Positions 10,481 to 63,100 of a stretch of 64,000 bases of DNA are shown here, in pieces (positions within the stretch are counted from its first letter, which is position 1; every line of letters begins with the position of its first letter). This DNA is from Escherichia coli (GTDB lineage Bacteria; Pseudomonadota; Gammaproteobacteria; Enterobacterales; Enterobacteriaceae). Position numbers and translations under genes: made by a program. The notes under the pieces were generated by a model. It was not told the origin of the DNA, did not search any database, and saw only the letters and a program-made list of their open reading frames with translations. The stretch is from NCBI RefSeq assembly GCF_022846255.1, contig NZ_AP025682.1; one strand, written 5' to 3'.

Positions 10481-10598
10481 TTCGCCTCCTCATTTCTTCT
10501 GCTGTCATCCGCACAGCAGAAGAATTCCTCATTGACTATTATCGCGCAATTTGCTCACATGGATTAAATTAAACCACACACTATAAGATATAAACTTC

Positions 10599-61635: not shown

Positions 61636-62187
61636 CTATCTTCTTAGCGATGTCTTTCTGGTATCACATTGGATCGGTGCAATTATTTTTCCTTTAATAC
61701 CCATTATGTTAAGAAATTCAGAACCAGCTGTAATCTCATTGTTTTTTTCATTCGTCTTGATCTTCCAAGGAATCTGACTGTGCATTATTGAGAACACACT
61801 AATAACGTGAATCGCTCCCTTGCGACGACTCTTGTCATAAGAGTACCGGAGCGTTTTTCCATCAATTGCAATGACGTCTTTATCATCTGAAGAATGGCAG
61901 TCAAGCATCCAGTTAATAAAGCACTCATGAAATTTTTCAGGACTGATACAGGATACAACTCTGGCAATGGTATCGTGAACAGGAATACCATTATCAAAAT
62001 CACCATATTGCTTCAAAAAATCGAGATGTGTTTCCCCAAAATCCTCTATATCTTCCCAGCCTTCTGCACCCGAAATAACGACACAAATAGTCAACAGTAG
62101 AATATCCGATAATTTATGCTCCACTTTCCAGGCTTGTCTGTAATCGGGGATAATAGAAATATGTTCCATCAATTTTTTAAGTTCCAT
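61636..62187 (-). mobile_element. ISAs1-family (H-repeat, YdcC/YhhI-like) transposase, 5' fragment only (about codons 1-190, frameshifted near its end)
   Basis: [63 protein letters not shown]… is the H-repeat protein N-terminus as I recall it; frame breaks after …IKGKII and similarity ends about 75 bp before the DGC stop. Confidence 0.8.
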
Positions 62188-62360
62188 TTTGTTCTCCTTA
62201 ATTATGTAAAGAGTATTTGATCATGTATAAGCAATAAAAAACAGCTTTAGGTAATGAGGAATATCTCAATTTTTAAACATAAAATGCGAATTATTTAGTA
62301 CAAAAAAGCAGCGTTACGTGATCTTTCCATGGAAAAGAGAGTAATACACTGATTTTTAAC

Positions 62361-62395
62361 GCAGATTGCCAGTGCTACCAACACTGACAATCTGC
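62361..62395 (+). promoter_or_regulatory. 14-bp imperfect inverted repeat upstream of the symE-like gene (candidate operator)
   Basis: gcagattgccagtg-N7-cactgacaatctgc, one mismatch, about 35 bp upstream of ATG 62428. Confidence 0.35.
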
Positions 62396-62427
62396 TCACC
62401 ACAAGCAACTAACAGAGGTAGTTAATC

Positions 62428-62747
62428 ATGGCTGAACACGATATTACGCCAGAAGTCGCCATTTCCAAAACACAGCGCCGCTATAAAGTCGGCTATGTCA
62501 GAGCCCGCCACATAAACAGCAAACCACGTACTACTCACGACACCCCAGCCTGAACCTTAAGGGCGACTGGCTGAAAGAGGCCGGATTTGATACCGGACGG
62601 GGTGTCACGGTGAAGATTTCGGAGGGGTGCCTGACCATCATCGCTGACAGTGACGAGGTGCAGGAACTGCGGGAGGAACTTTATCAGGTTAAACAGGTGG
62701 TTAAGGGGATGCGGAACGGGATGTTTAGTGTGCTGAACGAGAATTAA
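62428..62747 (+). pseudogene. SymE-family (type I toxin-like, AbrB-fold) gene with an apparent -1 frameshift
   Basis: Frame A gives MAEHDITPEVAISKTQRRYKVGYVRARHINSKPRTTHDTPA then TGA at 62551; frame -1 continues LNLKGDWLKEAGFDTGRGVTVKISEGCLTII…, resembling the SymE core (ITLKGQWLEAAGF…EGC) as I recall it. Confidence 0.6.
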
Positions 62748-62797
62748 ATAATAAAAAAGCCGGGGAGATTTAAAATCTTCCCGGCTTTCTTTATCAT

Positions 62798-63100
62798 CTA
62801 AAAAGGTAATAATCCTCTAATAGGAGAAAATTTTGTAATATCAATACCTTGTAATTTAAAGTAATTAAAAGCATCTTCTATATTGGAAAACGCACTAATT
62901 TCTTCAGTTGCATAATCTTCGAACACTTCCATTTTATTTTCTGGTATTTTGAAAAAATAGGTATTGTATTTTTCATCCTGTTTTTTAATGGCATATTGGA
63001 AAAAATAACTTTCACCATTTATTTCCTTTATCTCATCAAAACCTCTAACCTTACCATTCTCTATAGCAACAATTAATTTTTCAATAGACAAATCAACCAT
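62798..63100 (-). CDS. Small acidic protein, candidate immunity protein
   Basis: 100 aa, D/E-rich; start overlaps the stop of the upstream basic ORF by 8 bp; AT-rich codon usage. Confidence 0.5.
   Translation of the reverse strand: MVDLSIEKLIVAIENGKVRGFDEIKEINGESYFFQYAIKKQDEKYNTYFFKIPENKMEVFEDYATEEISAFSNIEDAFNYFKLQGIDITKFSPIRGLLPF

Follow-up and report, generated by a model that had tools for sequence, protein, structure and literature searches.

What does an inverted repeat of two 14-nt arms do directly upstream of a symE-like toxin gene? The repeat lies in a 64,000-nucleotide stretch of Escherichia coli DNA (hereafter the window; contig NZ_AP025682.1 of assembly GCF_022846255.1), and it could act as DNA, bound by a regulator, or as RNA, in a transcript of either strand. 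The K-12 symE gene is controlled by LexA (Kawano 2007, PMC1891008), and a sequence-only reading of the window had proposed that the repeat, which does not resemble a LexA box, is either an operator for a different regulator or a structure in an antisense RNA.

Here, we compute homology to SymR, a two-hairpin architecture, heavy covariation, selection on the minus strand and a conserved −10 hexamer for the element that contains the repeat, and conclude that the repeat very likely encodes the 3’ stem-loop of a SymR-family antisense RNA, cis-encoded and serving as antitoxin in a type I toxin-antitoxin pair.

The inverted repeat and the gene downstream

The repeat had been described as 14 bp long with an N7 spacer. 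It is present, with arms GCAGATTGCCAGTG (62361–62374) and CACTGACAATCTGC (62382–62395) and a spacer of 7 nt, and the arms are complementary at 13 of 14 positions rather than perfectly. The single mismatch is C·A on the plus strand, which is G·U on the minus strand. From the end of the right arm to the symE-like ATG (62428) we measured 32 nt, consistent with the distance of about 35 bp that had been claimed. We scanned the whole window for arms of 14 nt with at most one mismatch and a spacer of 3–12 nt, using 100 dinucleotide-preserving shuffles as the control, and found four distinct repeats of such quality where the shuffles gave a mean of 0.19 and a maximum of 2. The only other repeats of comparable quality in the window lie at 27200–27234 (GTAACAAGCCGGTG-N7-CACTGGCTTGTTAC) and 10492–10526 (ATTTCTTCTGCTGT-N7-ACAGCAGAAGAATT), and the SymR model described below matched neither of them.

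The downstream gene does belong to the SymE family, as had been read from the sequence. The intact allele matches PF08845 (E 2.5e-19) and carries the PGAP annotation ‘SymE family type I addiction module toxin’, and the window copy is a pseudogene:

62428–62747, plus strand: symE-like pseudogene, SymE toxin family (aligned to the intact 109-aa allele of strain MEI003; PF08845)

Homology to SymR

The Rfam symR model (RF01809) aligned over its full length (positions 1–77) to the minus strand at 62358–62433 with 48.3 bits (E 1.8e-7), and the repeat coincided exactly with the second helix of the model, as it likewise did in the related loci L001 and L002. This score represents significant homology and falls short of the curated gathering cut-off of 61 bits, so that an Rfam-based annotation would miss the RNA. 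A covariance model of our own, R1, built from 10 sequences of the subfamily, scored 69 bits on the window, where this was its sole match, and found a full-length element in each positive locus. Wherever a start codon could be located, the detected element was antisense to the gene with its 5’ end 6 nt inside the ORF. R1 also recovered the K-12-type SymR of the mcrB-symE-hsdS locus (39–43 bits, E ~1e-8), and the homology is therefore reciprocal. The parts of the element and its target are as follows:

62358–62433, minus strand: whole SymR-like RNA, about 76 nt (Rfam RF01809, own model R1, fold)
62398–62432, minus strand: 5’ stem-loop of the SymR-like RNA (Rfam alignment, fold, covariation)
62361–62395, minus strand: the inverted repeat, as 3’ stem-loop of the SymR-like RNA (covariation, strand asymmetry, fold)
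62415–62430, plus strand: symE-like translation start, the antisense target, with the Shine-Dalgarno (SD) sequence GAGG at 62415–62418 and the ATG at 62428–62430 (sequence)

We infer the RNA ends, 62433 and 62358, from homology to K-12-type SymR. Folding of the minus strand yielded two hairpins (−35.3 kcal/mol, z −5.86), the same two as in the Rfam alignment. The 3’ stem-loop reads GCAGAUUGUCAGUG-UUGGUAG-CACUGGCAAUCUGC, with every stem position paired and one G·U pair among them. The 5’ stem-loop carries an anti-Shine-Dalgarno sequence in its loop (CCUCUG, complementary to the symE-like SD), and the RNA 5’ end, AGCCAU, is complementary to the symE-like start codon. A minus-strand RNA spanning 62358–62433 covers both the SD and the ATG of the symE-like gene, as the SymR family requires.

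Covariation and the strand under selection

The comparison drew on a species-level genome collection (77 SymE-family loci), on E. coli loci that have intact relatives, on the K-12-type mcrB-symE-hsdS locus, and on 24 metagenome contigs carrying the conserved spacer. Scanning viral contigs for the same spacer gave 15 matches, none of them with a SymR-like element, and these are chance matches.

Across 37 distinct sequences representing 30 hairpin alleles, the arm sequences are almost unrelated and pairing is kept in 95.7% of cells. Compensatory double changes occur in 12 of the 13 pairs of the repeat helix among the 30 alleles, and covariation supports both helices of the RNA. None of 500 shuffles reached the observed covariation and slid registers fell to 30–42% paired, with the proviso that model-fitted alignments of related sequences make the shuffle statistics overstate independence. 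The same pattern, pairing without sequence conservation, was seen by eye in the raw sequences. A YUNR U-turn motif fits the UUGG loops of the window and the K-12-type loci but not those of many other alleles.

Between E. coli alleles (the window versus L002 and L085), the arms differ at 8–10 of 14 positions (57–71%), and four-fold degenerate sites differ at 17–19% (Fisher p 0.013 and 0.0003). The 32 nt from hairpin to ATG hold 2 differences between the same alleles, and almost no differences separate the alleles in the half of the RNA that covers the SD. In these comparisons the stem changes much faster than neighbouring neutral sites yet remains paired.

These observations bear on the idea that the repeat is a palindromic operator for a dimeric regulator, for instance the Cro/C1 helix-turn-helix (HTH) protein that intact relatives encode immediately upstream. 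A near-perfect palindrome in front of a toxin gene invites that reading, and an operator for a different regulator was one of the two alternatives that had been put forward. However, arms that diverge this far beside nearly identical flanks, and that are unrelated among the 30 alleles, preserve only their complementarity. The alleles of A36 and no107 have near-same hairpins beside HTH proteins that are only 36% identical, the repeat sits downstream of the HTH stop codon rather than at a promoter, and loci without an HTH gene, among them the K-12-type ones, have the element as well. The mismatch between hairpin allele and HTH protein, the unrelated arms and the HTH-less loci together indicate that the repeat is not the operator of the HTH protein, and we regard a dimeric-regulator operator of any kind as extremely unlikely.

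The distribution of non-canonical pairs identifies the strand on which selection acts. In the repeat helix we counted 379 Watson-Crick cells, 51 cells with G·U on the SymR (minus) strand, and 4 with A·C, equivalent to G·U in the mRNA. In 20 of 20 alleles the SymR strand gave the more stable hairpin (mean −20.7 versus −15.0 kcal/mol), and the same holds for every further metagenome allele. Close relatives among the alleles are separated by single transitions, with a minus-strand G·U as the intermediate (for instance, on the plus strand, A-T to A·C to G-C). The 51 to 4 bias argues that a minus-strand RNA is the selected form. G·U and A·C are meaningless distinctions for double-stranded DNA, and an operator would show no bias between them, whereas a structure in the sense mRNA would show the opposite bias. 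Of the two alternatives originally offered for the repeat, a structure in an antisense RNA is thus strongly supported, as the 3’ hairpin of a minus-strand SymR homologue, and the RNA-type strand bias adds to the evidence against the other.

The bias also weighs on the reading in which the repeat acts in the sense transcript, as a hairpin in the symE-like 5’ UTR (or in the HTH-symE spacer, if the two genes are co-transcribed) that stabilises, processes or attenuates the mRNA or modulates its translation. A plus-strand hairpin can form (−17 kcal/mol), the 106-nt leader folds with a z of −2.7, and a loop-loop contact with SymR would need such a hairpin. Yet the plus-strand hairpin is the weaker one in every allele, and no U-tract follows it on that strand. 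We consider this reading distinctly unlikely; a sense-strand role may be secondary, and not the main target of selection.

Promoter and 3’ end

Putative promoter hexamers of the SymR-like RNA lie within the symE-like coding sequence:

62441–62446, minus strand: putative −10 hexamer TAATAT, inside symE-like codons 5–7 and 7 nt upstream of the RNA 5’ end (conserved in 21 loci)
62463–62468, minus strand: putative −35 hexamer TTGGAA, with a 16-nt spacer to the −10 (read from the sequence)

In 21 of 21 related loci, exactly 7 nt separate a −10-like hexamer from the AGCCAU/AGUCAU 5’ end downstream of it, the variants of the hexamer being TAGAAT, TACAAT, TATGAT, TACTAT and TAATAT. The K-12-type loci have TAGAAT at the position of the window −10, and mutation of that hexamer (CATTCT to CACTCC on the symE strand) abolished K-12 SymR (Kawano 2007, PMC1891008). 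A generic sigma-70 scan did not report the window promoter, which matches 8 of 12 consensus positions and lies below its threshold. The predicted SymR-like promoter would thus be embedded in the symE-like ORF, as is characteristic of the family. Judged from its sequence, the element would belong to the SymR family by position, structure and promoter alike, falling short only of the curated score cut-off.

Beyond the hairpin, neither strand has a U-tract (tails: GUUAAAAAUCA, minus strand; UCACCACAAGC, plus strand), and a terminator scan called none at 62361–62395; the hairpin is therefore not a classical intrinsic terminator. The K-12-type SymR hairpin likewise has no U-tract (tail GCGCUAAAUACC).

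The native module and the LexA question

Intact close relatives (81–86% protein identity) reveal the native setting of this subfamily. In these loci a primase gene is divergent from a Cro/C1 HTH gene and the SymE-like gene, and small toxin/immunity-type ORFs and an integrase lie nearby. The arrangement is the ‘cHTH-SymE-Prim-Hel’ neighbourhood drawn by Kawano 2007 (PMC1891008). The SymR-like element fills the spacer of about 75 nt between the HTH stop and the symE-like start in every module locus of the intact relatives, and the same-strand layout suggests that HTH and symE would be co-transcribed there.

In E. coli no107 (L132, between pptA and ansP, 11000–35200), a full-length Rhs/VgrG cluster is followed by integrase/XerC, primase, HTH and SymE-like modules in tandem, with orphan genes for Rhs C-terminal toxins and immunity interspersed among them. 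This locus holds two SymR-like copies, identical to each other. Such an organisation would suggest that Rhs toxin tips and integrase-primase modules move together.

The earlier observation that the repeat itself is no LexA box (CTGT-N8-ACAG) was correct, and searching the 170 nt upstream of the window locus for that box with at most one mismatch returned none. The missing box is explained by the native layout, in which genes of the subfamily have no SOS promoter of their own and are directly preceded, on the same strand, by a Cro/C1-type HTH gene. One candidate SOS box, CTG-N10-CAG (62349–62364), was considered and rejected, as comparison with the intact relatives resolves it into the TGA stop of the HTH gene and the start of the stem. 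This motif overlaps the first 4 nt of the left arm and had looked like a LexA candidate owing to the motif ACTGAT, which K-12-type loci share. Neither the T of CTGT nor the A of ACAG is present in it, CAG is replaced by CGG in the allele of strain A36, and by our count only 10 of the 20 positions of the 20-mer agree with the LexA consensus. The genuine LexA box of the K-12-type loci (L080, L081) lies 7 nt upstream of their hairpin.

Stand-alone symER loci of Citrobacter, Enterobacter and Kluyvera (L045, L057, L062 and relatives) are also without a LexA box. They present a TTGACA-type −35 followed by two copies of a 10–11-bp motif about 35 bp apart, at a site some 30–85 nt upstream of the SymR-like 3’ end. 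The motif differs between loci and matches within a locus (GTACGTACCT/AGGTACGTAC, GGTAGGTACCA/TGGTACCTACC, and AGGCCACCTA twice), and the pairs are predicted to be operator-like sites.

A decayed copy of the module

Around the antisense RNA gene, the window retains only parts of the module:

62333–62352, plus strand: remnant of the Cro/C1 HTH gene, its last ~6 codons with the TGA stop at 62350–62352 (versus the HTH-symE spacers of L085–L092 and L002)
61636–62332, minus strand: ISAs1-family (H-repeat) transposase fragment and end (Pfam DDE_Tnp_1_assoc, BLAST, PGAP in L001)
62753–62791, no strand assigned: terminator-like hairpin with 19-nt arms, flanked by A-runs and T-runs, between the symE-like stop and a convergent 100-aa ORF (62798–63100)

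Relative to the 98%-identical MEI003 locus, a 10-bp deletion between 62522 and 62523 shifts the symE-like reading frame into a stop at 62551–62553. The ISAs1 fragment stands in place of the HTH gene and its promoter, and in over 5000 E. coli genomes, BLAST alignments with ISAs1 ends stop at about 62332. Neither the antisense RNA gene nor its putative promoter is damaged in the window. The RNA gene is the surviving part of a decaying module whose toxin is dead and whose HTH partner is lost, and with a pseudogene as its target the RNA may be without current function. The terminator-like hairpin downstream of the symE-like stop could serve both strands.

ISAs1 variants abut the SymR-like hairpin at three positions across loci. 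The end lies 25 nt upstream of the hairpin in the window and inside the left arm in L123 (~45–121). In L114, L120, L124 and L126 the left arm is deleted and the end lies within the loop. An adjacent ISAs1 transposase ORF was confirmed in L120 and L124 only, the hairpins of L114, L123 and L126 being too near a contig end. ISAs1 may have a target preference for the spacer or hairpin, or repeated deletions may have arisen from one insertion.

The presence of ISAs1 ends near or inside the hairpin in several loci allows the repeat to be read as a by-product of the ISAs1 end, much as LexA control of K-12 symE and the CTG-N10-CAG overlapping the left arm allow it to be read as a LexA or other SOS operator, and its hairpin as a classical intrinsic terminator. 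Against these stand hairpins in loci without any ISAs1, the resolution of CTG-N10-CAG into HTH stop and stem together with its CGG variant in A36, and the absence of a terminator call and of a U-tract on either strand. We judge this group of explanations very unlikely, and an antisense RNA of the SymR family is the reading that we develop below.

Proposed mechanism

A minus-strand promoter in codons 5–14 of the symE-like ORF would start the SymR-like RNA at about 62433, a position 6 nt within that ORF, and the RNA would end at about 62358, just past the hairpin. Its 5’ half would pair with the symE-like SD and start codon and thereby block translation of the toxin. The 3’ hairpin, that is, the repeat, would most likely fix and protect the 3’ end and give the RNA a long life, and its loop may aid first contact with the complementary loop of the mRNA.

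K-12 SymR is constitutive, in about 10-fold excess over symE mRNA, and very stable (Kawano 2007, PMC1891008). Its stability has been credited to ‘two strong hairpins’, and it represses SymE mainly at translation, without RNase III or Hfq (PMC1891008). By analogy with this homologue, the window RNA would repress translation, be highly stable, and act independently of RNase III and Hfq. We infer that the window copy is transcribed with the exact ends given above, and that the hairpin has a stabilising or terminating role.

The fast divergence of the arms and the ISAs1 ends abutting the hairpin at three positions prompted a further idea, namely that the stem is a fast-evolving specificity element that limits cross-reaction between SymR/symE pairs and, relatedly, that the hairpin DNA is a preferred landing site of ISAs1. 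We think this unlikely. Against the specificity role, one multi-copy genome, E. coli no107, carries two identical hairpins, and the half of the RNA that covers the SD hardly varies between alleles. The stricter version, that co-resident copies always carry different stems, was set aside; one multi-copy genome with two identical copies is unsupportive of it, though not conclusive.

Significance

The window element would be a divergent, previously unannotated SymR homologue in a decayed copy of its locus. The repeat is fully explained, and no new regulator need be sought. More broadly, SymR is not confined to the SOS-controlled K-12 locus and accompanies SymE paralogues of integrase-primase-HTH-SymE modules at Rhs toxin loci. 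The copies at Rhs loci lie under the Rfam cut-off and are unannotated, which suggests widening the symR model.

Kawano 2007 (PMC1891008) proposed that SymE genes lacking a transcription factor gene next to them are controlled by a small RNA, and took those with such a neighbour to be controlled only at the level of transcription. HTH-SymE modules probably combine two control layers, one of protein and one of RNA, a modest extension of the known system. Among the papers searched, none described SymR-like RNAs for the Rhs-associated paralogues; one takes their existence for granted.

Comparison with known systems

The closest known relative is K-12 SymR (RyjC; RF01809; PMC1891008). Both RNAs are cis-antisense to the 5’ end of a SymE-family gene, with their own 5’ end 6 nt inside the ORF. 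They share a length of about 76–77 nt, a first hairpin with an anti-SD and a second with a long G+C-rich stem and a UUGG-type loop. In each the promoter is embedded in the ORF with its −10 at the same codons, no U-tract follows the hairpin, and the covariance model of either detects the other. Unlike K-12 SymR, the window RNA lies below the Rfam cut-off, its stem sequence is unrelated, and there is no LexA box. The partner protein of the window RNA is about 40% identical to SymE of the K-12-type locus. The K-12 gene stands alone between hsdS and mcrB, whereas the native setting of the window element is an integrase-primase-HTH-SymE module at Rhs loci, in which, in the window, the toxin gene is frameshifted and the HTH gene replaced by ISAs1. 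The K-12-type symER locus was reached with the Rfam consensus; BLAST of the Enterobacter symER locus (L045) against E. coli gave no match.

A second comparison concerns Salmonella Typhimurium IsrA (RF01385), a cis-antisense RNA that overlaps STM0294.1n and is expressed inversely to it (Padalon-Brauch 2008, PMC2330248). The Rfam isrA model matches the window at 62499–62617 on the minus strand with 96 bits, above its cut-off of 51, and it matched above the cut-off, antisense to the coding region, in every SymE-like gene examined (96–141 bits). Matches in relatives, each antisense to a SymE-like gene (RF01385), include:

L001, 4310–4438
L002, 4106–4234
L082, 2599–2727

STM0294.1n is probably a SymE-family gene, judging from these matches. 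The isrA segment differs from the SymR-like RNA in place: it falls within the coding region, on the strand of the SymR-like RNA and 66 nt upstream of that RNA’s 5’ end, and excludes the repeat. That strand may carry another, longer antisense transcript upstream of the SymR-like one. The possibility that IsrA ends at the present hairpin was rejected, given that Salmonella enterica L082 has no SymR-like region; L082 lacks the element because the 5’ end of its SymE-family gene has been replaced.

The Rfam model of Ssr1 (Shigella small RNA 1) gave a partial match at 62458–63044 on the minus strand, with 113 bits against a cut-off of 820, far too low to pass. Where it aligns well, the match runs antisense to the symE-like coding sequence, which suggests that Ssr1 may overlap a SymE-family gene of Shigella.

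Beyond this family, the antisense RNAs of Sok/hok, CopA/CopT and RNAI/RNAII are small, structured and fully complementary to their targets, with covarying stems and with loops believed to initiate the pairing. The window RNA resembles them as a small structured antisense RNA with a covarying stem, and a role of its loop in contact with the mRNA is putative. Sok is unstable and acts with RNase III, in contrast to K-12 SymR, which is very stable and independent of both RNase III and Hfq.
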